A stretch of 32,000 nt of DNA, from contig NZ_JBHSTI010000008.1 of assembly GCF_042660085.1 (NCBI RefSeq), positions 2,055,604 to 2,087,603 on the forward strand. The letters run 5' to 3'. Both the position numbers and the translations under genes were made by a program. The DNA is from Longivirga aurantiaca (lineage in GTDB: Bacteria; Actinomycetota; Actinomycetes; S36-B12; CAIYMF01). Every line of letters begins with the position of its first letter. Position 1 is the first letter of the stretch. The notes below the pieces were generated by a model, which worked only from the letters and a program-made list of their open reading frames with translations, was not told the DNA's origin and ran no database searches. This document shows, piece by piece, positions 14,610 through 32,000 of this stretch.

Positions 14610-14614
14610 TCCGG

Positions 14615-16330: not shown

Positions 16331-17992
16331 TCAGTAGGCGCCGCGGGACGCGAGCACTGCGCGCACCGTGCGCACAAGGATCGCGATGTCGAGCAGGAAG
16401 CTCCAGTTCTCGACGTAGTACAGGTCGAGGCGGACCGAGTCCTCCCAGCTGAGGTCGGCGCGGCCGCTGACCTGCCAGAGACCGGTCAGGCCCGGCTTGA
16501 CGAGCAGGCGTCGCTGCACGTGGTTCTCGTACTGCGCGACCTCGCGCGGCAGCGGCGGGCGCGGGCCGACGAGCGACATCTGGCCGAGCAGCACGTTGAC
16601 CAGCTGCGGAAGCTCGTCGAGCGAGGTGCGGCGGAGGAACCTGCCGACGCGGGTGACGCGCGGGTCGTTGACGACCTTGAGCATCGGGCCGTCGTCCCCG
16701 TGCACGTTGTCGGCCTTGATGTCCTCGAGCCGGTCCTCGGCGTCGACCGACATCGATCGGAACTTCAGCATCGTGAACGTGCGGCCGGCACGGCCCACCC
16801 GCTCCTGGCGGAAGAAGGCCGGGCCCTTGGAGTCGGCGCGCACCGCGATCGCGAGCATGAGGAACAGCGGCGACAGCAGCACGAGGGAGACGAAGGCGAC
16901 TCCGCGGTCGAACAGGCCCTTGAACATGCGGCGGAAACCGGTGAACTCCGGCTTCTCGACGTGCAGCAGCGGGAGGCCGGCCACCGGCCGCACCGAGATG
17001 CGCGGGCCGGAGACGTCGGTGAGGTTCGGCGTCACGAGGATGTCGACGTGGGTGCCCTCGAGCTCCCACGACAGGCGGCGGAGCTCGGCCTGCGAGAGCG
17101 TCGACCACGCGCCGAAGGCGATGGTGTCGGCGCCGCACCGGATGAGCGCATCCGCGGCGTCTCGGGACGTGCCCACGACCTGCACACCCTCGACGGTGTC
17201 GCCCTGCGCGGAGTCGACGAGCGCACCCACGACCAGGAACGGGTGGTCGTCGTGGCGACGGAGCCGGCGGATGAGCTCGGCGGTCGAGCGCTCGGTGCCG
17301 ATGACGAGCACGCGGCGCGAGGCCGTGCCCTCCTTCTCGGCGTTGCGCTCCACGCGGCGCCCGATCGCGCGGACGATGAGGCTGAGCACCGTGGCGAGCG
17401 GGATCGCGACGATGGCGTAGCCGCGCGCGAAGTCCCAGTTGAGCAGGTACGACGACAGCGCGAGCAGCGCCAGGAAGCGCACCGCGGAGTCGAGCACCCG
17501 CCGGAACTCGTCGGTGCCGTCGCCGATGAAGCGCGCCTCGTAGGCGCGACCCAGGGCGAGCACCCCCGTCCATGCGAGCGGGAAGAGCAGCGTGATGGGG
17601 AGGTACAGCGCGTTCGGCCCGTAGCCGACGTCGACGCCGAAGCGGATGACGAGGGCGATGGAGGCTGCGAAGAACGCGGCGAGGGCGTCGGCGAGGATCA
17701 GGCCCCGGATGTACCGCTGGACCCAGCGCACCCTGCGCAGCGAGATCGCCTCCAGGTCGGGTCGCCGGTCCTCCGGCGTGAGGTCGGCCTTGAAGACCCG
17801 ACGTGCGGCCTGGTCCGGAACGGCGGACAGGCGGGGCGCATCGCCCTGCCGGGGCTCCGCCACGGGGGCGAGCAGCACGGCATCCGTGTCGAGGGCAGGA
17901 GCTGCGGTCCGAAGGGCGTCGTCGGCGTCGCGCGCGACGCCCGCACCACTGGCCCGCTGCCGCTCCACCGCCACCGCTTCCTCGTCGAGCAC
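16331..17992 (-). CDS. polyprenyl-phosphate glycosylphosphotransferase (WbaP/CpsE-type priming sugar transferase)
   Basis: Several N-terminal TM segments, a central linker, and a C-terminal bacterial sugar-transferase domain (SLVGPRPPLPREV...VKPGLTGLWQVSGRADLSWEDSVRLDLYYVENWS). GTG start at 17992 after AGGGGGAA. Confidence 0.9.
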   Translation of the reverse strand: MLDEEAVAVERQRASGAGVARDADDALRTAAPALDTDAVLLAPVAEPRQGDAPRLSAVPDQAARRVFKADLTPEDRRPDLEAISLRRVRWVQRYIRGLILADALAAFFAASIALVIRFGVDVGYGPNALYLPITLLFPLAWTGVLALGRAYEARFIGDGTDEFRRVLDSAVRFLALLALSSYLLNWDFARGYAIVAIPLATVLSLIVRAIGRRVERNAEKEGTASRRVLVIGTERSTAELIRRLRRHDDHPFLVVGALVDSAQGDTVEGVQVVGTSRDAADALIRCGADTIAFGAWSTLSQAELRRLSWELEGTHVDILVTPNLTDVSGPRISVRPVAGLPLLHVEKPEFTGFRRMFKGLFDRGVAFVSLVLLSPLFLMLAIAVRADSKGPAFFRQERVGRAGRTFTMLKFRSMSVDAEDRLEDIKADNVHGDDGPMLKVVNDPRVTRVGRFLRRTSLDELPQLVNVLLGQMSLVGPRPPLPREVAQYENHVQRRLLVKPGLTGLWQVSGRADLSWEDSVRLDLYYVENWSFLLDIAILVRTVRAVLASRGAY

Positions 17993-18251: not shown

Positions 18252-19760
18252 TCAGTGAGTTACAGGCGCCGGGGCGTACCGACGGTCGCCCGCGCTGCGG
18301 GCTCCGACCGCCGCCGCGAGCAGGCCCCAGACCACCCACATCGGCTGCGGCATCCCGCTGGCGGTGAAGTAGGGGAAGAAGAAGTTGATCACCGGGGCGA
18401 TGGCCGCGATACCCATCACCGAGGCTGCCAGCGCGATCTCCGCAGCCGAGTCGGCGGTGCGCAGGAACGCCTTGGCCGCGCGCCAGGACAGGTAGACGAC
18501 GGCGGCCCCGGCCACGAGCAGCGGGATCCCGCCGCGCAGCAGAAGGGTGATGTAGCCGGACTCGGTGTGGTCCCAGCTGATCCCCGGCGGGTCGGCCGGG
18601 CCGTAGCCCGTGACCCACATGCCCTGGAGCGCCGGGAGGTACTGGTCGCTCCAGACGATCCATCGGTAGAGGATCGTCTGCGGCACGAGAGAGTCGCCGG
18701 CGGTCGGCGTCGCCCTGGTCGCCTGCCCCTGCTCCGCCAGCCGCTCGCCGATGATCGGGAAGAACACGATCAGACCCACCGCTCCCCCGACCACGAGCCA
18801 GGCGAGGACGAGCCTCAGGCGCTTGATGGCCCAGCCGACGACGAGCACGCCGAGGACGAGGCCTCCGAGGATCGTGAAGGTCAGTGTGAACACCAGCGAG
18901 ACGCAGGCGATCCCCAGCGTGCCCACGAGCCACCACGTGCCGAGCACCGTCGTGTCGCGCTTGAGCAGGAGGGCGACCATGAGCAGCGACACGACCACGA
19001 GGTAGCCGCCGAGCGGGTGCCACATCGGGAACACGCTCGTCGCGCGCATGACGGGGTCGTAGCCGGGCGTGATGAAGATGCCCGTGCCGGACAGGCTCAC
19101 GGCGAGGTTCTGGAAGAACGCCGGGCCCACCATCTGCGCGATCGCGAGGAGGCTCACCGGGATGCTGGCGAGGATGAGCGCCCGCATCGCCAGCACGCGC
19201 AGGGCCGTGGTCGGGAAGGCGGCGGCCACGGTGCGGTAGAGCAGCAGGAACTGGATCGGACCGAGCATCGTGTTGATGTCGTCGCCGGTGATCATGGTCT
19301 GCTGCAGCGCCGAGTTGAGGATGCCGAAGGCCGCGGTGCCGAGGCAGTAGACGAGGGCCGCCCAGTCCCAGGCGCGCCACCGTGGTCCGGGCAGGGCCTT
19401 GGCCGCGAAGCCGAGCACCACGAGGGCACCGAAGACGACCAGCACCTCGGAGACCTTGAGACCCGGGATGCCGAGGCCGCGGCGCAGCCCCGACGTGATG
19501 GGCACCAGGGCGACGACCACGAGCGCGAGCAGCACGGGGCGCTGCGCCAGCGCGAGGCCGAGCGCGACCGCCACGATCACGGCCACCCCGAGCACCGGCG
19601 ACTGCACGGCCAGTGCTCCGGCGACCGCGGTGGCGCCGAGAGCGCCCAGGATGATCGCCCACGCGGGCAGGGGGACGACGTCCAGAACCCGCAGCTCGCG
19701 GGCCGCTGCCCGGGCCACAGGGGCCCGGGGCGCGGACGGCAGCTGCGGGGCGAGGGTCAC
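18252..19760 (-). CDS. O-antigen ligase/polymerase family (Wzy-like) integral membrane protein
   Basis: ORF 18252..20864 trimmed to the GTG at 19760, which overlaps the upstream stop (GTGA). It has about 10-12 TM segments and a large late loop (GERLAEQGQATRATPTAGDSLVPQT...), the usual Wzy/O-antigen-ligase layout. Confidence 0.75.
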   Translation of the reverse strand: MTLAPQLPSAPRAPVARAAARELRVLDVVPLPAWAIILGALGATAVAGALAVQSPVLGVAVIVAVALGLALAQRPVLLALVVVALVPITSGLRRGLGIPGLKVSEVLVVFGALVVLGFAAKALPGPRWRAWDWAALVYCLGTAAFGILNSALQQTMITGDDINTMLGPIQFLLLYRTVAAAFPTTALRVLAMRALILASIPVSLLAIAQMVGPAFFQNLAVSLSGTGIFITPGYDPVMRATSVFPMWHPLGGYLVVVSLLMVALLLKRDTTVLGTWWLVGTLGIACVSLVFTLTFTILGGLVLGVLVVGWAIKRLRLVLAWLVVGGAVGLIVFFPIIGERLAEQGQATRATPTAGDSLVPQTILYRWIVWSDQYLPALQGMWVTGYGPADPPGISWDHTESGYITLLLRGGIPLLVAGAAVVYLSWRAAKAFLRTADSAAEIALAASVMGIAAIAPVINFFFPYFTASGMPQPMWVVWGLLAAAVGARSAGDRRYAPAPVTH

Positions 19761-20905
19761 GCGCGCGGCTCGAGCCGGTCGGAGAGGTTGACGGTGCTCG
19801 CGCCGGCGGCGGAGGCGAGGTGCTTCGGGGCGAGCAGGCCCCAGACCACGGCCACGCCGTACTCCCCGAGCCGGACGAGGTTGTCGCGGACGACGGCGAC
19901 ACGGGTGCCCTCGCGGACGACCATGACCACCAGGTCGCTCATCTGGGCGCGCAGCTCGGCGCCCTCGCCGCTTCCCGGTGCTCCGACCGCGACGACTCCG
20001 ATGTCGCCGGAGTCCTCCGCGGCGCGGCCGCGGACGAGGTCCTGGCCCGTCGAGGTCGAGGACGACGTCGCGGCGACGGCCGGCACGGGGGTGTCGCCCG
20101 GGGAGTCGGGGCCGAGGCTCGCCAGCAGCGCCTTGACGTCGTCGCGCGACATCGGCGCGGTGGCCACGACCGCGACCTCCGGTGCGGGGACGCCGGAGAG
20201 CGCCCGCCACCGGTAGGCGAGGGCGCGGGCCTCGGCCGGCGTGACCGTGGCCCAGGCAGTGGCCGGGGTGCCGAGGAGGTCGGCGAGGTCGTCCACCGAG
20301 TCGATCCGGCGGTCCGAGCGCTCGAGCGCGAAGGCCGCCAGCAGGCCCACGAGGAGGCCGAGAAGCCCGCCGATGAGCAGGGAGGACGAGCTGGACTCGC
20401 CCATCCGCGCGGCCTCGGAGGGGACGGTCACGAGCTTCAGGCTGCCGCGGGCGATCTGCCCCGGCGGGATCGCGCGCGTCACCGTGGCCGCGACGGCGGT
20501 GGCCGAGTCGACCGCCACGATCGCCTGCCGGGACACCACGTCGATCCGGATGAGCGCGGTGCCGGGGTCGCTGGCGACGGTGAGGCTGTCGCGCAGGTCC
20601 TCGGTGCTGACGTCCGCCACGGTCGCGGCGGCCGACATGACGGCGTCGTCGAGCGGGATCAGCGTGGCGTAGTTGGTCGCGAGCTTCGCCGCGGCATCCG
20701 GCGACCCGGGGGGCGTCTGTCCTGCACCGACGGCGGGCACGATGACCACGGCCTCCGCGAGGTACTGCGGCGGCGTGCGCGAGGACACGAGGAAGGACAC
20801 GAGGATCCCGAGCAGGAAGCAGGTGAGCACGATGTACCACCGCCGCTGGACGGGCTTCTTCCATCGGCGGAGCGACCGGCGGATGCTGCCGGCGGGCTTG
20901 GTCAT
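19757..20905 (-). CDS. Wzz-like polysaccharide co-polymerase (chain-length determinant) with a degenerate BY-kinase-like C-terminal domain
   Basis: ORF 19757..21574 trimmed to the ATG at 20905 (ATGA overlap). It has TM1 (WYIVLTCFLLGILVSFLV), an extracytoplasmic domain starting PPQYLAEAVV, and TM2 (LLIGGLLGLLVGLLAAFAL). The cytoplasmic domain aligns to BY-kinases but lacks the Walker A lysine. Confidence 0.7.
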   Translation of the reverse strand: MTKPAGSIRRSLRRWKKPVQRRWYIVLTCFLLGILVSFLVSSRTPPQYLAEAVVIVPAVGAGQTPPGSPDAAAKLATNYATLIPLDDAVMSAAATVADVSTEDLRDSLTVASDPGTALIRIDVVSRQAIVAVDSATAVAATVTRAIPPGQIARGSLKLVTVPSEAARMGESSSSSLLIGGLLGLLVGLLAAFALERSDRRIDSVDDLADLLGTPATAWATVTPAEARALAYRWRALSGVPAPEVAVVATAPMSRDDVKALLASLGPDSPGDTPVPAVAATSSSTSTGQDLVRGRAAEDSGDIGVVAVGAPGSGEGAELRAQMSDLVVMVVREGTRVAVVRDNLVRLGEYGVAVVWGLLAPKHLASAAGASTVNLSDRLEPRA

Positions 20906-21963
20906 GGGAGTCGTGCCTCCGTTGCTGGCTCGGCGTCGGACGCCGGGTCGTCGTGCAGGTCGGTGGAGCCGCTGGGGTCCGGGAGGGCCAGCATCTCCAG
21001 CAGCTCCTGCCGCTGAGTGTCCCAGCGTCGCTGCTGGCGTGCGCGCACGGTGTCGAGGTCGCGCACGAGGCGGTCGTGGTCGCGCACCGCGAGGGCGAGC
21101 CCCGCGGCGATGCTGTCGCGGTCGTCCCCGCAGGTGACGGCCTCGGGGAAGAGCTCGCGCATGGTGCGAGTGTCGCTCATGACCAGCACCCGACGCGCGT
21201 AGCCCGCCTCGTACGCGGCACGCATCACCGAGGTCGGCTCGGTCGTGAGCGCGAGCAGGATGTCGCAGCCGTCCACCTCGGCGGCGTACGCAGCCTGGTC
21301 GAGCCAGCCGGTCAGCCGGACGTTGGCGGGCAGGTCGTCGAGGATCCCGGCAGGGGCTCGACGCGGGTCGCCGGTGACGAGCACGTCGAGCTCGGGCAGC
21401 GAGCGGGCCGCGGCGACGACCTCGGCCACCGGCTCGTCGGAGGCGAAGACGCAGGAGAACAGCACCTGCGGCCGACGGCCGTCGAGCGGCCGGGCGGGCG
21501 AGGTGGTCCAGTGCGGCGGCGCTTCGTGCAGCACCAGCGGGCGACCGCCCCACGACCGCACGACCTGCGCCCACGACTCGGTGGTGACGAGCACGCCGTC
21601 GGCCTTGCGCGCGAGCCTCGCCGTGATGCGCAGCATCTTCTGCGCCTGCGCGTTGTCCTTGGCACCGAACGACGCCGGGTGGCTGTCGAGAACGAACCGC
21701 GCCCGGGCGAGGCGGGCGTACGCGAGCGCGATGACTCCGGGGTAGACGGGCGGGTTCTGCACGACGACCGCGCGGGGACGCGACCGGGCGAGCCGTCCGA
21801 CGGTGACCAGCGAGCTGACGGCGTAGCGCAGCGGCGTGGCCTTCCGGGCGGTGAGCCGCTTCGGGTAGATCGTGACGGCCTCGCCGTCGAGATCGGCGGC
21901 CAGGTCGCGGGCGCGGCCGGCGGTCGGAGCCCAGGCGAGGAACTGCACGCGCGCGCGGCTCAT
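20902..21963 (-). CDS. glycosyltransferase (GT-B fold, GT4-like)
   Basis: ORF 20902..22173 trimmed to the ATG at 21963, with ATGA overlaps at both ends. The two-domain layout and its position between other glycan genes fit a glycosyltransferase. The motifs are divergent, so the family is tentative. Confidence 0.6.
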   Translation of the reverse strand: MSRARVQFLAWAPTAGRARDLAADLDGEAVTIYPKRLTARKATPLRYAVSSLVTVGRLARSRPRAVVVQNPPVYPGVIALAYARLARARFVLDSHPASFGAKDNAQAQKMLRITARLARKADGVLVTTESWAQVVRSWGGRPLVLHEAPPHWTTSPARPLDGRRPQVLFSCVFASDEPVAEVVAAARSLPELDVLVTGDPRRAPAGILDDLPANVRLTGWLDQAAYAAEVDGCDILLALTTEPTSVMRAAYEAGYARRVLVMSDTRTMRELFPEAVTCGDDRDSIAAGLALAVRDHDRLVRDLDTVRARQQRRWDTQRQELLEMLALPDPSGSTDLHDDPASDAEPATEARLP

Positions 21964-22916
21964 GACCCGCCGTCCCGCAGGAGCTGGAAGACGGGCGGGT
22001 CCGGCACGACCTCGACCGTGCGCGCCATGGCGCGGCGGAGGACCTCGGCGTCGAGCGCGTCCACCTCGCACGCGATCGCCACGCCGCGACGGTCGAGCTC
22101 GGCCGCGATCTGGACCTGGTGGTCGTCGACGTGCTCGCCGTGCACGAGCCGGCGCGGCAGCAGCACCGCGCACTTGCCCTCAGCCATCGCGAGCAGGCCG
22201 GAGCCGGTGCCCGAGTGCCCGACCACGAGGTCGGCCTCGCGCGCCGCGGCCGACAGGTCGGCGGACGGGATGCTGTGCTTGCCGTCGACGGGCAGGCCGG
22301 AGAGGTCGGTCTCGCCGGTCTGCCACAGGACCTCGGCGTCCGCCGGGAGCACCTCGAGCAGCTTCTCGACGGCGCGGCGGAATCCGTACGGCGCGATGGT
22401 GCCGAGCGTCACGACGACCTTCCTCGGGACGGCTGGTGCGTCGGGCAGGTCGGGGCCCGGACGGAAGCCGTCGAGGATCGACCCCGAGTAGTGCCAGCGG
22501 CCGCCGGCCCAGGCCGGGTACTGGCTGTAGGTGTTGACGCCGGGGATGCGCGACACCAGCTTCCCCGACAGCGACGGGCCGTCGGCGCGCGCGGCGCTCT
22601 CGACGTAGTGGCAGGTGATGCCGCGCGCCCGGGCCGGGACCATGAACGACACTGCGACGCTCGCGCCGGTCGAGACGACGCGGTCGTACTTCCCCGTGCG
22701 CAGCAGGTCGTTGGCGGTGCGGCCGATCCTGACCGCGACGGCGAGGTCGCGCGGTGCGGCGTACGGGACGTAGACGACGTCCTCGCCCGCGAGCAGCGAG
22801 CGCGACTGCGGGGTGTCGAAGGTGACGAAGGTGACGTCGCCGATCGGCAGACGCGGACGCAGGGTCCACATCTGCTGGAGGTGGCCGCCTCCCGAGCAGA
22901 CGAGCAGGGTGGTCAC
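21960..22916 (-). CDS. single-chain Alg14-like + Alg13-like (GT28 C-terminal type, MurG-related) glycosyltransferase
   Basis: ORF 21960..23696 trimmed to the GTG at 22916 (GTGA overlap). The N-terminal half reads LLVCSGGGHLQQM (Alg14/MurG-N-like). The C-terminal half reads VVVTLGT...VVGHSGTGSGLLAMAEGKCAVLLPR...HGEHVDDHQVQIAAEL (Glyco_tran_28_C-like). Confidence 0.6.
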   Translation of the reverse strand: MTTLLVCSGGGHLQQMWTLRPRLPIGDVTFVTFDTPQSRSLLAGEDVVYVPYAAPRDLAVAVRIGRTANDLLRTGKYDRVVSTGASVAVSFMVPARARGITCHYVESAARADGPSLSGKLVSRIPGVNTYSQYPAWAGGRWHYSGSILDGFRPGPDLPDAPAVPRKVVVTLGTIAPYGFRRAVEKLLEVLPADAEVLWQTGETDLSGLPVDGKHSIPSADLSAAAREADLVVGHSGTGSGLLAMAEGKCAVLLPRRLVHGEHVDDHQVQIAAELDRRGVAIACEVDALDAEVLRRAMARTVEVVPDPPVFQLLRDGGS

Positions 22917-23941
22917 GACGTGCCTTCCTGGTAGCCGGGCGAGACGTACGAGGCGCCCGGCGTCCCCGCGGGGAGCGCGGCCCCGGCCGCCGTCGTGCGC
23001 AGCTCGACGGCGTCGGCCCAGACCGACGGCGGGCGGAGCATCCCCTCGAGGTCGCTGCGCTGGTCGACGAGCACGATGTCCCGTGCGCTGAGCCACGGGA
23101 CGACGTCGTCGGTCCAGAGCAGGTACGCCGCACCGCCGTTCGCGCCGTCGGGCTCGCCGGTGATCACGATGCGCCGCAGGTCGAACTCCTCCGGCGGGGT
23201 GTCGACGAACTGCTGCGGCAGCAGGAAGAGGCCCTGGTACTCGGTGGATCCCGTGAGGCCGTCGACGCGCAGGCGCGCCGGACCGGCCCAGGTCTGCAGG
23301 ACGTCGGCGTGGTGGCCGTCGCGCGACCCGTGGACGGTCTCGACGTGGATGTTCTGCAGGACCACGGTGGCGCCCTCGGACTGGTCGAGGTTGATCCCCT
23401 CGGCGAGGTCCTGGCCGCTGATGCGCAGGCCCTCGACGTGGATCGTGCCCGTCTGGTTCTTCAGCAGCAGGCCGGTGCGCTTGCGCGAGTCCGACGCCTC
23501 GGACTTCGGCGGCACCACGATCTCGCCGCCGAGCAGGACGACGTTGCGGCCGCCCTCGATGCGCAGGCCGCCGCTGAGCAGGAGCGGCGTCGCCGGCAGC
23601 TTGACGATGTAGTCGCGGTCGGACCGGAGCTCGATCTTGGGGGTGGTGGCGGTGACCGTGACGAGGGTGGGGCTCGTGAGCTTCGGGGGTGCCCACGAGA
23701 GCCGGTCGGCCGTCTCGGCCGCCACCGACGGAGCGGGGAGGGTGGGCTCGGGCCCGGCCGCCGACTCCCCCCGCTGGGTCAGGGCGAGCGCCACCACCAG
23801 GGCGGCGAGGGCCAGCACGCAGATGCCCACGAGGAGGAGCAGACGGTTCGAGCGCGGGGGTGCGGAGTCGTCGGACGGCCGGGGACGCTCGTGCACGGAC
23901 GTCGTGCGCACCGTCACCCCCTGGTCGTCGAGCATGAGCAT
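22913..23941 (-). CDS. N-terminally membrane-anchored extracytoplasmic protein with an unassigned, probably carbohydrate-active, domain (paralog of the C-terminus of 24152..25759)
   Basis: A single TM segment (LLLLVGICVLALAALVVALAL), then about 260 aa that align with the neighbouring gene product along their whole length. Shared blocks are listed in the findings. Confidence 0.7.
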   Translation of the reverse strand: MLMLDDQGVTVRTTSVHERPRPSDDSAPPRSNRLLLLVGICVLALAALVVALALTQRGESAAGPEPTLPAPSVAAETADRLSWAPPKLTSPTLVTVTATTPKIELRSDRDYIVKLPATPLLLSGGLRIEGGRNVVLLGGEIVVPPKSEASDSRKRTGLLLKNQTGTIHVEGLRISGQDLAEGINLDQSEGATVVLQNIHVETVHGSRDGHHADVLQTWAGPARLRVDGLTGSTEYQGLFLLPQQFVDTPPEEFDLRRIVITGEPDGANGGAAYLLWTDDVVPWLSARDIVLVDQRSDLEGMLRPPSVWADAVELRTTAAGAALPAGTPGASYVSPGYQEGTS

Positions 23942-24100
23942 GGTCGGGAGAAGCCTAGGCGAGCGGTGACGGATAGTCGCGATCGCGCGGCCGGATCTAC
24001 CTGTTCGGCCTACCCCGGACGCACGCGCGTCGAGCGGGGTGAGCGCGCCCGGTCACGCAGAGCGACGAACGGTGGTGTCCCGAGGTTCCCGGAACGACAC

Positions 24101-24127
24101 GGCCCCTCCTGCGGAGCAGGAGGGGCC
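24101..24127 (-). terminator. intrinsic-terminator-type hairpin after the malectin-domain gene
   Basis: GGCCCCTCCTGC-gga-GCAGGAGGGGCC is a perfect 12-bp stem with a 3-nt loop, 25 nt downstream of the stop at 24152 on the minus strand. Confidence 0.7.
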
Positions 24128-24151
24128 GGTGCGAGGAGCACGGTGCGAGGG

Positions 24152-25759
24152 TCAGCCCGCGTATCCCGGGCTGGTGTAGCCGGCACCCGCGGAGGCCGCG
24201 AAGTCGACCGGTGCGCGGCCCTTGGTGACGTTCGGCCAGTCGCTGGAGGAGTTCCAGTTGCCGAGCCCGCCGGAGGTGAAGACGTTGTAGGTCGCGATGC
24301 CCTGCGGAGGACGGACGCGCCAGAGGATGTACTTCGCCTGGGCGTTGCCCACGATCTCGACGTTCTTCAGGACCCAGTTCTCGGTGACCGCGGAGGCCGT
24401 CGAGGTGTCGTGCGGGTTGAGGAACATGCCCTGGTAGCCGGTGGTGGCGGTGAAGCCGTCGACCAGGAGGGTGGTCGGGCCGTTCCAGCACTGGAGCGCG
24501 TCGGCGTGGTTGGTGGCCTGGGTCCCGGTGAGGACGGTGTCGATGGACACGTTCTGGACCTGCACCTTGGCCAGCGGGGCGCTGATGTTGATGCCCTCCG
24601 ACAGGTTGCCCGACGAGGAGATGAACCTGACGCCCTCGAGGTGGATCGTGCCGGTCTGGCTGAGGAAGTACGCGGCCCGCTTGACCATGCCGTCGGCGGG
24701 GACGCCGGGGCCGGTGCCGGAGCTGTACCAGCCGCCCGCCACGTCGACGGTTCCGCCGATGATGACGATGTTGCGGCCGCCCACGATCTCGAGGCCATGG
24801 GTGTTCCTGTACACCGCGTCGGTCGGGAGCCTGAGGATGTAGTCGGTGCCGGCCGAGAGGTTGATCCTGCCGTCGGGCTTGCTGGCGAGATCGATCGTCA
24901 CCGGGTTGGTGAGCGCCGGCGGGGCCCAGGAGAGCTCGGTGCCGCTCGGAGCCGGCATGGTGGCCACGGGCGCGGGGCTCGTGGTGACCGGCGCGGGAGA
25001 GCTGGTCACGGGCGCGGGGCTCGTGGTGACCGGCGCGGGCGAGGTGGTCACGGGCGCGGGGCTCGTGGTGACCGGCGCGGGCGAGCTGGTCGCGGGCGCG
25101 GGCGAGCTGGTCACGGGCGCGGGGGTCGTGCTCTCGGGTGCCGCAGCGACGTCGACGGGGTCGACGCGCAGGCCGGACACGATGGCGTAGTCCCTGCGCG
25201 CCTTGAACGCCAGCGACAGTGCGCCGTCCTTGACCGTCACCGTCGCGGAGCGGGTGAGCTCGACGTCGTGGCCGACGACCTTGTAGACGTCCAGGTTGGA
25301 GAAGACGGTGACGCCCTCGGCAGTCGCGCTGAAGACGCGCTTGCCCGAGGCCTTCCAGTACGGCTCGGCCATCACCAGCGTGACCTTGTAGGTGCCGTTC
25401 GCGACGGGGACCTTGTAGGCGCTCATCCCGAAGCGGTAGTTGCGCAGGACGCTGCCGTCCTCGGTGCCGGTGATCGGATCGGCGGTCTTGCCGAGCTTGC
25501 CACCGGTGAAGCCCGAGTCCGCGGTCCACACGGTGCCGTCGCTCGCGGTGAGGCCGGGGCCGCCCGCGTCGATGTTCAGGGACGGGATCGCTGCGTCTCC
25601 GGCGGAGGCGCCGAAGACCGAGGTGAGGCCGGCGACCACGAGGGCGGAGGCGACCCCGACGGCGGTGGCCGAGCGGCGGGACGAGGCGGCGGTGCGACCG
25701 GTGCCGGCGACGGTGCGTCGCGGCATCTCCGTGTGGCGCCCGGATGACGTGGTAGCCAT
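24152..25759 (-). CDS. secreted three-part protein: malectin-like carbohydrate-binding domain, P/T/S-repeat linker, unassigned C-terminal domain
   Basis: ORF 24152..25906 trimmed to the ATG at 25759, 9 nt after GAGGAG. The signal is Tat-like (SSRRSATAVGVASALVVAGLTSVFGASA). A malectin pattern is present (IDAGG...W.AD..F.GG...ITGT.D..L....RFG...Y..PV.NGTYKVTL..AE........GKRVF......G.....NLDVY). The linker is 8 x SPAPVTT. Confidence 0.8.
   Translation of the reverse strand: MATTSSGRHTEMPRRTVAGTGRTAASSRRSATAVGVASALVVAGLTSVFGASAGDAAIPSLNIDAGGPGLTASDGTVWTADSGFTGGKLGKTADPITGTEDGSVLRNYRFGMSAYKVPVANGTYKVTLVMAEPYWKASGKRVFSATAEGVTVFSNLDVYKVVGHDVELTRSATVTVKDGALSLAFKARRDYAIVSGLRVDPVDVAAAPESTTPAPVTSSPAPATSSPAPVTTSPAPVTTSPAPVTTSPAPVTSSPAPVTTSPAPVATMPAPSGTELSWAPPALTNPVTIDLASKPDGRINLSAGTDYILRLPTDAVYRNTHGLEIVGGRNIVIIGGTVDVAGGWYSSGTGPGVPADGMVKRAAYFLSQTGTIHLEGVRFISSSGNLSEGINISAPLAKVQVQNVSIDTVLTGTQATNHADALQCWNGPTTLLVDGFTATTGYQGMFLNPHDTSTASAVTENWVLKNVEIVGNAQAKYILWRVRPPQGIATYNVFTSGGLGNWNSSSDWPNVTKGRAPVDFAASAGAGYTSPGYAG
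24959..25126 (-). repeat. in-frame 21-bp tandem repeat, 8 copies, encoding (S/T)PAP(V/A)(T/S)(T/S)
   Basis: The plus strand shows alternating ggtgaccggcgcgggcgagct / ggtcacgggcgcggggctcgt units. Translation is TPAPVTS SPAPATS SPAPVTT SPAPVTT SPAPVTT SPAPVTS SPAPVTT SPAPVAT. Confidence 0.9.
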
Positions 25760-26186
25760 GATGTTGTGCTCCTCAGTCGGCACTGACGGCTGTGAAGGGC
25801 CGCCTTGCGGAAGTGCGCGAACACATGGGGTTTCGGGACAGCGAGGGGCTGGCTTGACCCCTCTGGGCGCGGATGGGCCATGTGGGTTACGTGCCCAAAG
25901 ACACATCTGCGACGGTCCCCGTCACGCGTCAGGAGGGCCGTCCCTGGCCCGTCCGGAGGAGGTGCTCCTCACCCCGCTGCGGTGCCGCCAGCGGTCCGTC
26001 CGTGTCGACTCCGTCACGCGGGGCGACGCCACTCACCCGATCGGCTCAGGGAGCGACGACCCGAGGGGGTCGGGTCGCCGATATCCGGCCAGTGGCGTGA
26101 TGTGACGTCGCCGACGTCGCTCTCCAGCCGCTCTCGCTCCGGCCGTGGTGCCGCGCCCGTCGCCGCGGATCGCGGCGTGGTCGGGT

Positions 26187-27233
26187 TCACCCGCGAGGAG
26201 CAGCCGCCTCTTGCCAGAGCGCCACGTTCCGGCTCACCTCGACCTCGGCCATGAGCGCATCGGTCCCCTCGTCGGCCGACAGCACGATCCGGTCGAGGAT
26301 CCGAAGGCCCGCGCGGGCCCAGGCGAGGACGAACAGCGCGGGCTCGAGGTCGGCGTCCGCCCTCCGCGCGACGTGCTCGGCGAACACCCGCCGCGCGCCA
26401 CCGTCCGGGCGCACGAGGTCGCGCACGAACACGTCCCGCTCGGCCGCCACGCCGTGCACGGCGGCGTCGGAGAAGGCCAGGAACGCGAGCAGCTGGGCGA
26501 GGTCGTGACCGACCACGCCGCGCTCGAGCCCGAGCTCCCAGTCGACGAGCCCGACCCTCGTGGTGCTGCCGCCGTCGAGGACGAGGATGTTGGGGTGCGC
26601 GGGGTCGCCGTGCTCGAAGACCGTCGGCAGCGTGCGTCCGCGGAGGGGCGACACGGCGTCGCGGGTGGCTGCGATCGTGCCGTGCAGCGCGTGACCGTCG
26701 GGCAGCAGCGCGGCGAGCCGCTCGAGCCGCGGCTCGAGCAGGGTGTCGAGCAGGTCCGTGCCGGAGCGCTCCCCCGTCACGGGCAGCCCGTCGATCCAGG
26801 CGAGGGCGCTGGCCCGGGCACCGGCGTCGGACCGCGCACGGGCGTGGGTCAGCGGCTGGCCCACGAGGGGCGTCTCGAGGAGCACGCGCCGCGACCCCAC
26901 CATCGCGCAGGCCACGACCGACGGCGTGGCCCCGAGCAGGCCGGGGGCGGCCTCGGACAACCGGCGCAGGACCGTCGCCTCGTGCACCACCGCGTGGTCG
27001 TCACGGACCGAGCGGGGCACCTTGAGGACGCTGCGGAGCCGGCCCTTGCGGTCCAGGACGAGGCCGACGACGTGCCGGGACTCCACGAAACCCGGTGTCA
27101 CGAGAAGGATCCGGGCCCCCTCCGGCAGCGCGTCGGACACTGCGGCCGAGGGCGCCGACCAGTCCAGGGGGTCGTCCGTCGCCGGCATGCCTGCCCGGAG
27201 GGCGTCCGCCACCACGTCGAGGTAGGTGCTCAC
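26187..27233 (-). CDS. APH / choline-kinase-fold phosphotransferase family protein
   Basis: ORF 26187..29951 trimmed to the GTG at 27233, which overlaps the flippase stop (GTGA). The kinase catalytic loop FEHGDPAHPNILV and the downstream GLVDWELG (Brenner and DxE-type motifs) are present. Confidence 0.7.
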   Translation of the reverse strand: MSTYLDVVADALRAGMPATDDPLDWSAPSAAVSDALPEGARILLVTPGFVESRHVVGLVLDRKGRLRSVLKVPRSVRDDHAVVHEATVLRRLSEAAPGLLGATPSVVACAMVGSRRVLLETPLVGQPLTHARARSDAGARASALAWIDGLPVTGERSGTDLLDTLLEPRLERLAALLPDGHALHGTIAATRDAVSPLRGRTLPTVFEHGDPAHPNILVLDGGSTTRVGLVDWELGLERGVVGHDLAQLLAFLAFSDAAVHGVAAERDVFVRDLVRPDGGARRVFAEHVARRADADLEPALFVLAWARAGLRILDRIVLSADEGTDALMAEVEVSRNVALWQEAAAPRG

Positions 27234-29344
27234 GGCTCGTCCGTCCGTCCTGTCGCGATACGGTCGCGCGCCACCCACGCCACGAGCCCCACCGAGACCA
27301 GCACGCGCGCCGCGAAGGAGAGCACCCTGCCCCGTCGGCTGCCCTCGTGCCGGTGGAGCGCGGCGAGCACCACCGGCCGGGCGTCGAGGGGGACGAGCAT
27401 CGTGCGGGCGCTGCGGCGCGGCGCCTCCCAGTGGAGCGACACGTCGCGCAGGCCGGCTGCCTCGAGGGCGCGCGTGGTCGAGCGCAGCGAGCGCCGGGTG
27501 GCCGCCACCTCGATCACGACCCAGGTGCCCGACGGGACGTCGCGCAGGGCGTCGGAGAACTCCGAGGGGTGGAGGCGCCCGAGACGGACGCCCGCGCCGA
27601 CCTCGGGCAGCAGGAACAGCGGGTCGTCGACACGGGGGTCGAGCGCCGCGAGCGCACGCGCCGTGGCGCCCTGCTCCCCCTCCGCTGCCGGAGCGCTGCC
27701 CGAGCCGCCGGCGCTGGAGGCCACGCGGTAGGGGTTGCGGGTGCTCCGGGCCCCGCGGGACGAACCCCTGCGGAGCAGCGGACCCGCGACCGGGATCTTC
27801 AGCAGCTCGGGGAACGTGTGCGCGACGTCGAGGTACGGCAGCGTCACGAACAGGACTCCGAGGGTGGCCGCACCCGTCAGGAGCACGGACAGGATGAACC
27901 CGGCCCCGACCCAGTACTGCAGCAGCGACGTCAGCACGACGCCGAGGAGCATGGCGGTGTACGGCGCCGCCATCCACGGCTCGACGACACCGGACGGGAG
28001 CCCGCGCAGGCCGAGCTGGCGCACCACGTTCCCGAGGACGAGCGACAGCGCCATGCCGACAGCGGCGCCCCACGCGCCGAGCGGCGGGATGAGGGCGAAG
28101 GCGAGCACCGTGCCCAGCACGAGCACCGCCATGTTGGAGAAGAAGATGAAGCGCAGCCGACCGGCGGTGGCCATGAGGATCGCGCTGAAGCCCGACGCCG
28201 CCTGGAACCAGAAGCCGAACCCGAGGATCGCGAGCAGCGGGGCGCTGTCGGCGTACTGCGAGCCGAGCAGCGTCACCGTGACGGGCTCGGCGAACGAGAC
28301 GCTGAGGACCAGCGCCGGGTACGACACGAGGGCGACCCACAGCGCGGTGCGCCAGTAGGTGAGGCGCACCCCCTCCATGTCGCCGCGCTGCCAGAGCCGC
28401 GTCACCATCGGCGGGAACAGCACCCAGAAGGCGCCCGCGGCGGCCATCGAGAGCTGCGCGATGGGCATGACCGCCCGCAGCGACGCGACGTCGGCCGCGG
28501 TGCCGACCGCGCCGAGGACGAACGTCGGCAGCGCCATGACCACGACGTAGACCAGCGAGGAGGTCAGGAGGGGGAAGCCCTCGCGGAGCATGGGGCGCAC
28601 CGGCATCGTCACGCGGCCGTGCAGCTCGGCGAAGAAGCCGAGCCGCGAGAGCAGACGCAGCACCATGACGACGTAGATCGACACGCCGAGGAGCGAGGCG
28701 AGGACGTACCCGACGGTCAGGCCGTAGACGCCGGCGCCGAGGAAGAACACCGTGACGATCGCGGTGAGGCGAAGGCCCGGCTCGAGCAGGTAGCGCCGTA
28801 CGAAGACGGCACGCGCGCTCGCGAACGTCGCGAACGTGTTGACCACCATCGCGTCGAGCGCGGCGAGAGGCGCGAGCAGCACCATGAGCACCAGCAGGTT
28901 CGCCGCCGTCTCGGACGGCGCGATGCCCGGCGACAGGCGTCCGTGCCAGAGCAGCACGAGCAGGAAGACGATCGAGCCGAGGGAGATCACCACGAGCGCC
29001 TCGGTCACGAGGACGCCGACGACCTTGCGGTCGTCCCCCTCCTCGTCGTACTTCGCGAGGAAGCGGGAGTCGACCCGGTCGAGACCGAGAGGGATCAACG
29101 ACTGCACGAGCGTGACGATCGAGAGCGCCCAGGCGAACGCGCCGTAGTCGTCCTTGGTGAGCACGCGGACGAGCAGCAGCTGGATGACCAGCCCGAGACC
29201 CATGCCGAGCAGGCGACCGACGAGCAGCAGCGCGGAGCCGCGCATCTGCGACTTCGACGACGCCTTGCCCCGCGGGGCGCGCACCGGAGCAGCCTCGCCG
29301 TCCCCGGGCACCGCGTTGCTGTCGAGCGCCTCCTCGGCGCTCAC
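27230..29344 (-). CDS. Wzx-like MOP-superfamily polysaccharide flippase fused to a roughly 190-aa soluble C-terminal domain of unknown function
   Basis: About 12-14 TM segments beginning GSALLLVGRLLGMGLGLVIQLLLVRVL (typical Wzx N-terminus). A Gly/Ser/Ala linker and a non-membrane domain follow, up to the stop at 27230. I chose the GTG at 29344 because it forms a GTGA overlap with the upstream stop, as at other junctions in the locus. Alternative starts are the GTG at 29359 (ORF track) and the ATG at 29245. Confidence 0.75.
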   Translation of the reverse strand: MSAEEALDSNAVPGDGEAAPVRAPRGKASSKSQMRGSALLLVGRLLGMGLGLVIQLLLVRVLTKDDYGAFAWALSIVTLVQSLIPLGLDRVDSRFLAKYDEEGDDRKVVGVLVTEALVVISLGSIVFLLVLLWHGRLSPGIAPSETAANLLVLMVLLAPLAALDAMVVNTFATFASARAVFVRRYLLEPGLRLTAIVTVFFLGAGVYGLTVGYVLASLLGVSIYVVMVLRLLSRLGFFAELHGRVTMPVRPMLREGFPLLTSSLVYVVVMALPTFVLGAVGTAADVASLRAVMPIAQLSMAAAGAFWVLFPPMVTRLWQRGDMEGVRLTYWRTALWVALVSYPALVLSVSFAEPVTVTLLGSQYADSAPLLAILGFGFWFQAASGFSAILMATAGRLRFIFFSNMAVLVLGTVLAFALIPPLGAWGAAVGMALSLVLGNVVRQLGLRGLPSGVVEPWMAAPYTAMLLGVVLTSLLQYWVGAGFILSVLLTGAATLGVLFVTLPYLDVAHTFPELLKIPVAGPLLRRGSSRGARSTRNPYRVASSAGGSGSAPAAEGEQGATARALAALDPRVDDPLFLLPEVGAGVRLGRLHPSEFSDALRDVPSGTWVVIEVAATRRSLRSTTRALEAAGLRDVSLHWEAPRRSARTMLVPLDARPVVLAALHRHEGSRRGRVLSFAARVLVSVGLVAWVARDRIATGRTDEP

Positions 29345-30597
29345 CGCACGCCCGACCACGTGCGCCAGACGAGTGACTCGACCTCGCGGCGCACGGTCTC
29401 GGCATCGTTCGTCGCATCCACGACGACGACATTGTCATACCGGTCGCGCAGGTCGAGGTAGCGCTGGCGCCGCTCCTCGAGGATCTCCGGCGTGTGCTCA
29501 CCCTTCCGGTCGAACATGAGCTGCCCCGGGGCGTCGAGCACGACGAAGACGTCGGGTGCCGGGCAGCTGTGCAGGAGCAGCGAGTAGCTGACGCGGGCGC
29601 GGAAGGTCGGCTTGCCCGGGCGCAGCAGGGCGTCGACGACGTGCCGGTCGTAGAGCACGACCCGGCCGCGGCGCTGGTCGACCGCGGCCTTGGTCGAGCG
29701 CCAGCGCAGCTTCGCGAGCTTGAGGCCGAGACCCACCCCCGGGACGCGCTGCCAGGCGGGCTCGTGCGGGTCCACTCGGAAGACCCCGAGGTAGCGCACC
29801 GAGACGGCGAGCGGGATCGCGTCGCGCAGACCCTCGACGAGGGTCGTCTTGCCGGCGCCGTCGGGGCCGAGCACCGCGAGGGCGACACCGGGGCTGCCCG
29901 GCGACCTCCAGGAGAGCGCGTCGCGCAGCCGCCGGGCCTGGCGGGCGGCACGACCGGGTCGACGCTTGAGCACCGGCTCCCACCGGGCGATCAGCTCACG
30001 GAGCTGGGAGTCGTCGCCGCCCAGCGCGGCGGCCGCGGCGGCAGCCCCGGCTGCGGCCTGGCCGGCACCGAGCAGGGCGTCCACCGCACCGGGCAACGGG
30101 CCGCCCGGGTGCGGTACGCCGGTGAGCGAGGCAGTCCCGCGGTGCACGGCGCGTACGAGGGCGAGCCAGTCGCGGTCCTCGGCGGCGACCCGGCGCACGC
30201 CGTCGTCACCGAGCTCGGCGCGCGCGAGCAGGTCGTCGAGCACCGGCAGCACGGCGCTCCTCGGCCCGGCCGCCTCGACGACGGGGAGGAGGTCGAGCAC
30301 GAGCCAGCCGTCGTCGGTGGAGGACCGGCGCACGAGCAGCCGGTGCGGCAGGTGCTCGGGCGCACGCCGGAGCACGAAGCCGGTGGCGACGAGCGCGGGC
30401 AGCACCCGCGGCAGGTCTGCCTCGCGCACCAGGACGTCGACGTCGCCGCCGGGACGGTCGAGCGCGCCGCGCAGCACGGCCCAGGCGGCGCCGGTGGAGT
30501 CGAGCGCGCTGAACGCGGCCACGAGGTCGGGGTGGACGTCGGCAGCACGGTCGGGGCTGGCGACGGGGCCCGCCTCGTCCGACGGCGGAGTGAGCAC
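29341..30597 (-). CDS. two-domain protein: N-terminal nucleotidyltransferase-like domain (NTP_transf_5-like) + C-terminal P-loop kinase (thymidylate-kinase-like fold)
   Basis: ORF 29341..31761 trimmed to the GTG at 30597, which shares 1 nt with the upstream TAG. The N-terminal half reads AWAVLRGALDRPGGDVDVLV...ATGF. The C-terminal half has Walker A (VLGPDGAGKTTL) and LYDRHVVD. The start position is uncertain. Confidence 0.6.
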   Translation of the reverse strand: MLTPPSDEAGPVASPDRAADVHPDLVAAFSALDSTGAAWAVLRGALDRPGGDVDVLVREADLPRVLPALVATGFVLRRAPEHLPHRLLVRRSSTDDGWLVLDLLPVVEAAGPRSAVLPVLDDLLARAELGDDGVRRVAAEDRDWLALVRAVHRGTASLTGVPHPGGPLPGAVDALLGAGQAAAGAAAAAAALGGDDSQLRELIARWEPVLKRRPGRAARQARRLRDALSWRSPGSPGVALAVLGPDGAGKTTLVEGLRDAIPLAVSVRYLGVFRVDPHEPAWQRVPGVGLGLKLAKLRWRSTKAAVDQRRGRVVLYDRHVVDALLRPGKPTFRARVSYSLLLHSCPAPDVFVVLDAPGQLMFDRKGEHTPEILEERRQRYLDLRDRYDNVVVVDATNDAETVRREVESLVWRTWSGVR

Positions 30598-32000
30598 TAC
30601 GACAGGACCTCGATCGCGTTGACCTGAGGGTTGTCGAGCCCGGGGACGCGACCGAACGAGATCACGACGGGGCCGGACGTGGTCACCGTGAACTCGCGGA
30701 CGACGCCGCGCCTGGCACCGCCGGCCGCCGCGAAGATGTCGAACCGCGTCAGCACCTTCGTGCCGTTGATGCTCACGTCGAACGCGCGCTTGCCCGCAGC
30801 AGTCCAGTAGTTCTCCGAGAAGTAGAGGCGCACCGTGTAGGTGCCGGCCTGCGGCACGGGCATGGTCCACACCATGTCCTTGCCGCCCGACACGTCGTAC
30901 CGGTACGTCTGGAAGAGCGCGGCCGGCGTGCCCGCGGGCACGGACGGGTCGGAGACGTTGATGGCCGACGTCGTCGACCCCGTCTTGAGCTTGGCCGCGG
31001 CGGTGTTCGCCCAGGACGAGGGCGACGACGAGGTGTCGGCCAGCCAGCCGCCGGACAGCGCCGCGCCACCGGCGTTCACGCGGTCGATGGGCGTGCCGCT
31101 CGTGAGCGGCGGGCTCACGACGACCGTGCGCGAGGCGGAGGTCGAGCCTCCGGAGTTGGTCGCCGTGAGCGTGACCACGTACGAACCGGCCGCGGTGAAG
31201 GTGTACGAGGGGTTGCGGCTCGTGCTGGTGCCGCCGTCGCCGAAGTCCCATGCCCACGAGGTCGGGGCGCCCGTGGACGTGTCGGTGAACGAGACCGTCA
31301 CCGGAGCAGTGCCCGACGTGGTCGAGGCCGTGAACGACGCGGTCGGCGGCGTCACGACGGGCTCGGACACCACGATGGTCGCGGACGCCGACGTCGAGCC
31401 GCCCGCGTTGGTCGCTGTGAGCGTGACGGTGTACGTGCCCGGCGTGGAGTAGGTGTGCGCCGGGCTTGCGACGGTGCTGGTGCCGCCGTCGCCGAAGTCC
31501 CACGCCCACGACGTGGGCGCACCGGCGGAGGTGTCGGTGAAGGACACCGTGACCGGCGCGGTGCCCGAGGTGGTGGACGACGTGAACGACGCCGTGGGCG
31601 CGGTGACCGAGGCGGTCGTGACGACGACGGTCGTGGACGCCGACGTGGAGCCGCCGTCGTTGGTCGCGGTCAGCGTGACGGTGTACGTGCCGGGATCGGC
31701 GAAGAGGTGCGACGGGTTCTGCGCGGTGCTGGTGCCGCCGTCCCCGAACGACCACGACCACGACGTGGGACCGCCCGTGGACGTGTCGGTGAACGAGACA
31801 CCGAGCGGCGCCGCACCCGTGGTGGCCGACGGCGTGAACGACGCGGTCGGAGCGGTCGGGGCGGCGGAGCCGGAGTCGGCGTACCAGTAGCGCGGCGAGA
31901 TCTCCGTCGCAGCGAGCACAACGACCCCCGAGGTCGCCGTCGCCGGCTGCTTGCTCGAGGTCGCGTTGTTCATCGTCGCGTTCGCGACGTCGCGCAGCAC
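30597..32000 (-). CDS. secreted protein with three PKD domains and a C-terminal malectin-like domain (N-terminus beyond the right edge)
   Basis: Three roughly 84-aa repeats match the PKD signature (VSFTDTS.G.PTSW.W.FGDGGTS....P.H.Y...G.Y.VTLTATN.GGS.S). The malectin pattern follows (IDRVNAGG...W.AD...YRYD...M.W..PV..GTYTVRLYF.E......GKRAFDVSINGT.VL..FDI). The ORF is open at 32000. Confidence 0.8.
   Translation of the reverse strand: MLRDVANATMNNATSSKQPATATSGVVVLAATEISPRYWYADSGSAAPTAPTASFTPSATTGAAPLGVSFTDTSTGGPTSWSWSFGDGGTSTAQNPSHLFADPGTYTVTLTATNDGGSTSASTTVVVTTASVTAPTASFTSSTTSGTAPVTVSFTDTSAGAPTSWAWDFGDGGTSTVASPAHTYSTPGTYTVTLTATNAGGSTSASATIVVSEPVVTPPTASFTASTTSGTAPVTVSFTDTSTGAPTSWAWDFGDGGTSTSRNPSYTFTAAGSYVVTLTATNSGGSTSASRTVVVSPPLTSGTPIDRVNAGGAALSGGWLADTSSSPSSWANTAAAKLKTGSTTSAINVSDPSVPAGTPAALFQTYRYDVSGGKDMVWTMPVPQAGTYTVRLYFSENYWTAAGKRAFDVSINGTKVLTRFDIFAAAGGARRGVVREFTVTTSGPVVISFGRVPGLDNPQVNAIEVLS
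31116..31850 (-). repeat. three tandem, roughly 252-bp intragenic repeats (PKD domain units)
   Basis: The repeat period is 84 codons. Units 2 and 3 are near-identical at the protein level (PTASFT.STTSGTAPVTVSFTDTS.GAPTSWAWDFGDGGTST...). Confidence 0.8.

Follow-up and report, generated by a model that had tools for sequence, protein, structure and literature searches.

An apparently unclassified beta-helix domain in two predicted exported proteins of a Wzx/Wzy-type glycan locus of Longivirga aurantiaca and in temperate phages

Introduction

What two neighbouring proteins with predicted export signals do inside a glycan-assembly locus of the actinobacterium Longivirga aurantiaca is the question taken up here. 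The window, by which we mean the whole stretch of 32,000 nucleotides that was analysed (contig NZ_JBHSTI010000008.1, positions 2,055,604 to 2,087,603; positions below are those within the window), carries on its minus strand gene A (22913-23941; 342 amino acids) and gene B (24152-25759; 535 amino acids), set among genes of a Wzx/Wzy-type pathway. A sequence-only reading, made earlier and without database searches, had pointed out a domain of roughly 260 residues that is common to the two products, and had guessed that it folds as a beta-helix and acts as a glycanase, lyase or epimerase on the polymer of the locus. We conclude, with slightly better than even confidence, that A and B are exported beta-helix enzymes and that they most likely cleave the surface polysaccharide of the adjacent Wzx/Wzy machinery. 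The beta-helix fold is well known, as is the idea of a beta-helix glycanase encoded by a polysaccharide cluster or a phage. What stands out here is the fixed association with an actinobacterial Wzy module, the presence of multiple copies per locus, and the phage-type mosaic structure of B.

Results

A domain shared by A and B

Both open reading frames are of the coding type, with a G+C fraction at third codon positions (GC3) of 0.96 to 0.97 in a window of high-GC actinobacterial DNA. BLASTP with composition-based statistics aligned residues 64-337 of A with residues 264-533 of B at 105/291 identities (36%) and 50% positives (E=3e-39). The sequence-only reading had described a single domain shared along its whole length, and that description held: the similarity covers about 290 residues, and each of the blocks it had listed was found in the alignment, namely LSWAPP.LT.P, DYI[VL][KR]LP, GL.I.GGRN.V..GG, QTGTIH.EG.R, L[AS]EGIN, V.QN, HAD.LQ.W.GP, VDG.T..T.YQG.FL, Y.LW and the C-terminal G[AS][SG]Y.SPGY. 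Nor is the similarity confined to low-complexity segments, as the alignment runs through ordinary, nonrepetitive sequence and the Pro/Thr/Ser linker of B lies outside it. The domain limits given earlier (residues 81-342 of A and 275-535 of B) also map to the correct nucleotides (Table 1). The genes had been called adjacent paralogs, and the E value above upholds their homology; a simple local duplication does not fit, however, as A-type and B-type domains form old and distinct clades (see below).

To which family the domain belongs was asked of several resources. Neither A nor the C-terminal half of B had a match in Pfam, NCBIfam or PHROGs, and PDB chains were matched neither by the single sequences nor by a 45-sequence profile of the shared domain. 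In the case of PF13229 (Beta_helix), A and B had no match at E≤1, and one of 45 homologues matched weakly (E=0.009), a match that could be the source of the one UniRef entry named "Right handed beta helix domain-containing protein"; members that are named by their source are otherwise called hypothetical protein. Literature searches found no study of the beta-helix family or of Longivirga glycans. Thus, the sequence family appears to be unclassified in Pfam, NCBIfam, PHROGs and PDB sequence searches, in agreement with the earlier remark that the domain could be placed in no known family. The family is also large: when 1.84 billion cluster representatives were searched with a profile, 12,539 matched at E≤1e-3, a count that is an upper bound because the profile included some noncore columns, with 7,753 at E≤1e-10 and 1,871 at E≤1e-30.

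Fold and conserved residues

AlphaFold2 models built on homologue alignments were confident for the domains of both A (predicted local distance difference test [pLDDT], 95.9; predicted TM-score [pTM], 0.93) and B (pLDDT, 90.5; pTM, 0.89). Both models are all-beta, with repeated short strands and a rung-like secondary structure. When they were compared with the PDB and BFVD by Foldseek, the best 50 matches listed per search were all right-handed parallel beta-helix proteins: PL6 alginate lyases, PL1/PL3 pectate lyases, GH87, GH28 and GH49 enzymes, pectin methylesterases, RbmB, the HK620, P22 and other tailspikes, and a few adhesins. The modelled domains of A and B are therefore of the right-handed parallel beta-helix (pectin-lyase-like) class, and the fold guessed from the sequence is borne out by confident models whose matches are beta-helices only.

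Conservation was scored across 309 aligned family sequences that are only 30 to 50% identical overall (A numbering). Nearly invariant were D110 (306/309), Y111 (294), H168 (284), E170 (300), E181 (E or D in 307), N197 (293), H211 (305), D213 (307), Q216 (305), D227 (300), Y235 (299) and Q236 (307), while R256 was R or K in 273; W218 and the C-terminal GxxYxSPGY tail are family-conserved as well. B keeps all of the family-invariant residues except that R256 is replaced by K; it also has V in place of D254. Such a near-invariant set of Asp, Glu, His, Asn, Gln and Arg residues resembles an active site and suggests that the domain is an enzyme. Among the tabulated positions of the same alignment, no family-wide conserved Lys was seen.

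Export and fusion partners

How the two copies are predicted to leave the cytoplasm differs. A consists of a predicted short cytoplasmic N-terminus, one transmembrane anchor (LLLLVGICVLALAALVVALALT), a Pro/Ala linker and the beta-helix domain. The anchor is the only strongly hydrophobic segment of the protein, with a Kyte-Doolittle maximum of 3.21 at residues 34-52 (19-residue window), and since Arg residues stand just ahead of it, the domain is predicted to face outward. An identical 342-amino-acid product was found on three further metagenome contigs by exact-sequence look-up.

The product of B is identical to WP_386767649.1 from Longivirga aurantiaca (Sporichthyales), which is annotated as a malectin domain-containing carbohydrate-binding protein and nothing more. 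Its layout is signal peptide, malectin domain, Pro/Thr/Ser linker and beta-helix domain. The N-terminus resembles a signal peptide, with RR at residues 28-29, a moderately hydrophobic stretch at 31-53 and then ASA|GD, and the twin-arginine translocation (Tat) route is a possible path of export on this reading of the motif. The malectin (CBM57-like) domain is assigned by PF11721 (E=9.2e-20; 71.7 bits versus a cut-off of 23), and PDB malectin chains match B at E=7e-6. The linker is encoded by a 21-bp tandem repeat of 7.8 copies (24961-25123), in which periods of 42 and 84 bp were also seen. We note that members of the 90% cluster of B are 520 to 535 amino acids long, and these lengths may mirror variation in the number of linker repeats. 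Full-length B occurs at 93 to 96% identity on several independent contigs, and the fusion of malectin and beta-helix is therefore real. Hydropathy, motif reading and the Pfam malectin match thus predict what had been proposed from the sequence, that one copy is membrane anchored and the other secreted behind a malectin domain and a linker.

The rest of the family points to the same compartment. When the short members were screened for hydrophobic runs by a crude rule, most carried an anchor or signal at the N-terminus, and an uncharged stretch of 18 residues or more was present there in 92/153. Among 57 long members, malectin is fused in six; ricin-B, F5/8-C, CBM6, CBM60, CBM96, legume lectin, SLH, CWB2, PKD, fn3 and dockerin domains were also found, and four of the 57 carry PhoD, phosphoesterase or metallophosphatase fusions. 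As judged from these domain assignments, the repertoire fits an extracellular, carbohydrate-active catalytic domain.

Gene neighbourhood across genomes

Whether the family travels with glycan assembly was assessed in a scan of one genome per species, which yielded 76 loci, 64 of them from Actinomycetota and 12 from elsewhere; some loci overlap in the same genomic region, so that the counts are not fully independent. The actinobacterial loci came from Nanopelagicales-type metagenome-assembled genomes (up to 85% identity), Cellulomonas, Actinotalea, Kineococcus, Acidothermaceae, Solirubrobacterales, Gaiellales and Acidimicrobiia, and the remainder from bacteria of the Planctomycetes-Verrucomicrobia-Chlamydiae (PVC) group, Abditibacteria and Saccharibacteria. 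Co-occurrence was measured by tblastn with the Wzy, Wzz, GT4, GT28C and priming-transferase proteins of the window. At least one module homologue was present at 47/64 actinobacterial loci versus 1/12 of the others, two or more at 33/64 versus 0/12, and Wzy itself at 35/64 versus 0/12. Co-occurrence with Wzy-type loci across Actinobacteria, which had been put forward as a check, was thus found at 35 of 64 loci. The module that most frequently adjoins the family in Actinomycetota is GT4 plus Wzz-like plus Wzy-like, and independent look-ups for Cellulomonas aerilata and Blastococcus montanus give the same picture of the neighbourhood.

In the window itself, the TGA stop codon of A overlaps the GTG start codon of the PssD/PssE-type glycosyltransferase gene (GTGA), which indicates translational coupling of the two. 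By called coordinates, overlaps of four bases also join each gene to the next from that GT28C-type transferase through the Wzy-like gene, which places A within the assembly operon. Between A and B, which is the upstream gene of the two, there are 210 bp. A scan of 22500-26400 found no consensus for a sigma-70 promoter or an intrinsic terminator.

Outside the Actinomycetota the picture is different. In PVC bacteria the family is represented by a protein of about 290 amino acids that stands alone beside AraC or LacI regulators. Stand-alone homologues of this size were found at the nonactinobacterial loci L006, L013, L019, L039, L053, L055, L056 and L067, where AraC-family proteins make up 6/70 of the neighbouring proteins, LacI-type regulators occur too, a GH130 (L006) and a GH10 are among the neighbours, and no glycan-synthesis genes were seen. 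These contexts suggest a sugar-inducible, degradative or catabolic role for the stand-alone homologues in PVC bacteria, and their existence indicates that the domain is useful without Wzy machinery.

Relatives of B in temperate phages

Where the beta-helix of B has its closest kin was searched by a word-indexed method whose list of matches is incomplete and lacks B's own cluster. The best matches listed were 60 to 72% identical, 330 to 370 amino acids long and devoid of a malectin domain, and all four contexts examined for these homologues were temperate phage genomes with an integrase and with tape-measure and tail genes. Genes of temperate phage genomes were 63 to 72% identical to the beta-helix of B. 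The prophage protein P0254 (locus L084), 72% identical to the beta-helix of B, is encoded after a tape-measure protein and a PHROG "tail protein," with an integrase downstream. For P0272 (L105), the preceding genes are minor tail genes and a PhageMin_Tail tape measure, and integrase and repressor-like genes are found downstream; P0253 (L104) directly precedes an integrase and a helix-turn-helix repressor; and P0270 (L085) shares a phage-like contig of 83.6 kb with an r1t-type holin. Relatives were encoded by 16 IMG/VR viral contigs, three of them at 62 to 65% identity. The 50,697 deposited phage genomes of INPHARED gave one weak match (a Microcystis phage, 29%); it is from prophages and viral contigs of metagenomes that the link to phages is drawn.

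In two of the prophages (L084:8072-11107 and L105:8431-11110) the gene order is a small protein with one transmembrane segment, a holin-like protein with several, a protein of 219 to 240 amino acids, the beta-helix gene and the integrase region. The holin-like protein has 165 to 172 amino acids and a duplicated DSTRRA motif, and the 240-amino-acid protein of L084 has a weak Peptidase_M15_4 match (E=0.001, below the cut-off). From this arrangement, the beta-helix gene appears to follow a lysis cassette as an accessory depolymerase. In actinobacterial prophages, glycopolymer depolymerases have been reported at this place, following the lysis module (PMC9862828).

In a neighbour-joining tree (244 domain columns, 100 bootstraps), B fell with the phage-type clade (87/100) and A with its orthologues (98/100), while the syntenic host genes at the position of B in its closest relatives (P0297, P0290, P0289 and others) formed a group of their own (77/100). 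The beta-helix of B shares 46 to 52% identity with those syntenic genes, against 72 to 85% for A and 88 to 92% for the adjacent glycosyltransferase in the same relatives. B is moreover a mosaic when compared with P0289, as the malectin domain is 71% identical but the beta-helix only 52%. For the A-type domain, no close relative was found in viral contigs. Transfer of the B domain from phage to host or from host to phage would both be compatible with these relationships.

The surrounding locus

The features of the window are collected in Table 1. Pfam and NCBIfam annotation of the neighbours, all on the minus strand, confirmed that the locus is of the Wzx/Wzy type.

Table 1. Coordinates of genes and domains in the window
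Feature	Position	Strand	Basis
Alpha/beta-hydrolase and Cys/Met-metabolism pyridoxal phosphate enzyme genes (metX/metY-like pair)	13455-16021	minus	
Priming polyprenyl glycosylphosphotransferase	16331..17992	minus	Pfam Bac_transf, 2.7e-70; TIGR03025, 435 bits, above cut-off
Wzy-like polymerase	18252..19760	minus	Wzy_C match below cut-off
Wzz/CpsC-like chain-length determinant	19757..20905	minus	Weak family matches only
GT4 glycosyltransferase	20902..21963	minus	Pfam
PssD/PssE-type (Alg14 + GT28_C) glycosyltransferase	21960..22916	minus	Pfam, NCBIfam
Gene A	22913..23941	minus	Open reading frame list, GC3 0.97
Beta-helix domain of A, residues 81-342	22916..23701	minus	AlphaFold2 model, Foldseek, conservation
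Transmembrane anchor of A, residues 34-55	23777..23842	minus	Kyte-Doolittle, 19-residue window
Gene B	24152..25759	minus	Open reading frame list, Pfam malectin
Beta-helix domain of B, residues 275-535	24155..24937	minus	AlphaFold2 model, Foldseek, tree, alignment with A
Pro/Thr/Ser linker of B, residues 204-274, PAPVT[TS]S heptads	24938..25150	minus	Tandem repeat and sequence
Malectin (CBM57-like) domain of B, residues 61-187	25199..25579	minus	Pfam PF11721
Export signal of B, residues 1-53	25601..25759	minus	Hydropathy and motif reading
APH-family kinase-like gene	26187..27278	minus	Pfam; conserved only in close relatives
Wzx-type flippase (Polysacc_synt)	27230..29359	minus	Pfam
P-loop thymidylate-kinase-like protein	29341..30597	minus	Weak match; in conserved locus of close relatives
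Secreted protein, three PKD domains then malectin, C-terminal part	30597..32000, past window end	minus	

The PssD/PssE-type transferase next to A matched three NCBIfam models, PssD, PssE and a WelK-like one (7e-34, below the cut-off). A long cytoplasmic extension at the C-terminus of the Wzz-like protein showed no Walker-A GK[ST] by eye and may be a degenerate bacterial tyrosine (BY) kinase domain. Conserved only in the closest relatives are the APH-like and thymidylate-kinase-like genes; together with the phosphoesterase-type fusions of family members, these kinase-like genes could hint at a phosphorylated glycan. The metX/metY-like pair directly follows the priming transferase, a position kept in the four closest relatives, and is probably unrelated to the glycan locus. 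Two plus-strand open reading frames that passed the GC3 filter (30841-31452 and 31453-31890) are shadows of the PKD-malectin gene and have no family matches. Scanning the window for Rfam families and tRNA genes returned nothing.

We note that a related genome (GCA_964269125.1, L106:10001-20930) encodes a third short beta-helix paralogue, P0239, of 309 amino acids, upstream of several very large PKD/fn3 proteins, a GT2 and a PKD-malectin gene. A gene set of this type probably sits just past the right end of the window.

Discussion

How A and B might act on the polymer follows from where each would be placed. A, predicted to be tethered at the outer face of the membrane and cotranslated with glycosyltransferases, would act on nascent or lipid-linked chains, and its function could be chain trimming, release or control of chain length. 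B, as a secreted protein, would be kept on the polymer by its malectin domain through the flexible linker, from where it could remodel chains that have reached the wall or the medium. In related hosts, temperate phages may in turn use a B-type enzyme to breach or leave the same glycan layer.

Whether cleavage would proceed by hydrolysis or by beta-elimination is finely balanced, and we lean slightly to hydrolysis. For a lyase speak PL6 as the best fold match, the basic residue at position 256 and the adjacent transferase, which is WelK/PssDE-like below the cut-off. For a hydrolase speak the invariant Asp/Glu/Asp/His set without a conserved Lys and the lack of any UDP-glucose dehydrogenase (UGDH) homologue in the window and 79 related loci. 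PL6 enzymes use a Lys base, an Arg acid and an Asn/Glu/Glu calcium site. Like A and B, the PL6 alginate lyase Pedsa0632 and chondroitinase B are single-chain right-handed beta-helices of similar length, and the PL6 structures 7o7a/7o84 align with the A model over about 240 columns at a TM-score of 0.47 to 0.52 and 13 to 14% identity, with a nonsignificant E value of 0.065. The shared domain differs from PL6, however, in matching no PDB chain by sequence and in having no uronic-acid gene nearby.

The closest known system is perhaps WceF of Pantoea stewartii, a Tat-exported beta-helix glycanase of the stewartan Wzy cluster whose loss lengthens the chains (PMC7949094). WceF, AmsF and their colanic-acid counterpart in E. 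coli, WcaM, resemble A and B in that a right-handed beta-helix is encoded inside a cluster for Wzy-dependent exopolysaccharide. WceF is, however, a trimeric, tailspike-like protein of 736 amino acids, whereas the domain of A and B is compact, at about 260 residues, and is joined to an anchor or a malectin domain in a Gram-positive-type envelope. WceF was absent from the top Foldseek matches, and homology to WcaM was rejected when the family profile was aligned with E. coli K-12 WcaM by hhalign (probability, 0.2%; E=0.34). The phage tailspike and prophage depolymerases of HK620, P22, Klebsiella, Acinetobacter and Curtobacterium share the fold, and the B-type domain resembles prophage depolymerases in its place at the end of a late operon of temperate phage genomes. 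Unlike tailspikes, the family has no PHROG match and no significant Foldseek match to tailspikes of BFVD or the PDB, and the B-type phage proteins are small (330 to 370 amino acids), with a hydrophobic segment or coiled coil and a Pro-rich linker in place of a particle-binding domain. Finally, RbmB, PslG, PelA, BcsZ and AlgL likewise pair a polymer-specific cleaving enzyme with the genes of synthesis; RbmB is a beta-helix too and occurs in the weak Foldseek lists, but all five belong to other families, the folds other than that of RbmB are different, and no sequence similarity was found.

What else could a beta-helix do in this position? The target might be the cell wall and not the product of the locus, such that peptidoglycan, the linkage unit of a wall glycopolymer or a teichoic-type polymer is hydrolysed, the host copy opening the wall for insertion of the polymer and the phage copy serving as an accessory lysin. 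Indeed, the copies in L084 and L105 carry an export signal and follow holin-like genes (in L084 also the weakly M15-peptidase-like one), and in some members there are fusions to the wall-binding domains SLH or CWB2, as well as to PhoD, phosphoesterase or metallophosphatase domains. The tie to one Wzy/Wzz/GT4 module across distant actinobacterial orders nevertheless points to the product of that module, most fusions are to carbohydrate-binding modules for soluble glycans, and the PVC homologues sit in sugar-regulated contexts, so that we regard a wall hydrolase as rather unlikely. Modification without cutting is unlikely as well. In that case a C5-epimerase of the AlgG/AlgE kind or a CE8-like esterase would work in the beta-helix groove; the conserved His and Asp would suit acid-base chemistry, AlgE6 and pectin methylesterases are among the weak Foldseek matches, and a membrane-tethered A coupled to assembly genes fits modification during export. 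No CE8 or epimerase match was obtained in Pfam or PDB sequence searches, however, a uronic-acid (UGDH) gene was found neither in the window nor at 79 related loci, and carriage by phages and in the sugar regulons of PVC bacteria fits degradation better. The epimerase option of the sequence-only reading is unlikely for the AlgG/AlgE type, as neither A nor B has the DPH[DE] motif; AlgE6 ranked only 50th in Foldseek (E=1.3).

Perhaps A does not shorten chains but frees them from undecaprenyl-pyrophosphate or moves them to a wall acceptor, as a transglycosylase or release factor of the Wzy pathway. LCP ligases fill the role of attaching polymer to the wall elsewhere, and no LCP-family gene was seen among the annotated genes of the window; moreover, A is membrane anchored and translationally coupled to assembly genes, and the family is tightly tied to Wzy/Wzz homologues and occasionally fused to phosphoesterases. 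The idea is purely inferential, however, a ligase would be of no obvious use to phages or to the stand-alone copies of PVC bacteria, and LCP genes may sit elsewhere in the genome, which makes a release factor quite improbable in our judgment. Least probable, we think, is a beta-helix without catalysis, be it a glycan-binding scaffold, an adhesin, a sheath component or, in phages, a receptor-binding protein. Adhesins and nonenzymatic tail fibres do share the fold and appear in the match lists, and any catalytic role of the conserved residues is putative. Against this stand a dozen polar residues that are about 95 to 99% invariant in the 309 sequences, a degree typical of active sites and not of binding surfaces, the routine joining of the domain to separate carbohydrate-binding modules, and the short stand-alone copies in PVC sugar regulons.

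Several observations count against cleavage of the locus polymer, which we still prefer. None of the Foldseek matches was significant (best E=0.065 for the A model and 0.089 for the B model, with TM-scores of at most 0.52), so that the structure matches establish the fold class alone for these models, and the nonenzymatic adhesins PfbA, SRRP and Awp14 are in the lists too. No characterised relative of the family was found, and the domain may fall in a recently created CAZy family. Two to four copies of the beta-helix often surround the module in actinobacterial loci, and so many paralogues would be unusual for a simple trimming enzyme. Finally, the phage proteins have N-termini of two kinds, one in which a hydrophobic segment rich in Ala and Gly precedes a Pro/Thr/Ser linker and one in which a coiled coil precedes a Pro-rich linker; these N-termini are unlike the classical tailspike architecture, and the role in phages is to that extent inferred.

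Why a host gene should carry a phage-type domain invites speculation. The family may be a new one that is fixed in an actinobacterial Wzy system and also serves temperate actinophages as a weapon. B would then be a phage-type domain set on a host malectin that strips or shortens the cell's own phage receptor, in remodelling or superinfection exclusion, or else the host lineage was the source of the phage enzyme. We consider this larger proposal doubtful.

If activity is confirmed, the domain would define a new family of beta-helix glycanases or lyases with thousands of members, none of them characterised, and would offer a handle on a surface-glycan system that is conserved in many little-studied Actinomycetota, abundant freshwater lineages among them. 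As Longivirga aurantiaca has been named and described and its genome sequenced, both the polymer and the enzymes should be obtainable. The sharing of the B-type domain by host and phage suggests that the polymer of the locus is a phage receptor or barrier. Ultimately, an enzyme that removes this polymer would be available from both the host and the phage side, as a natural experiment.

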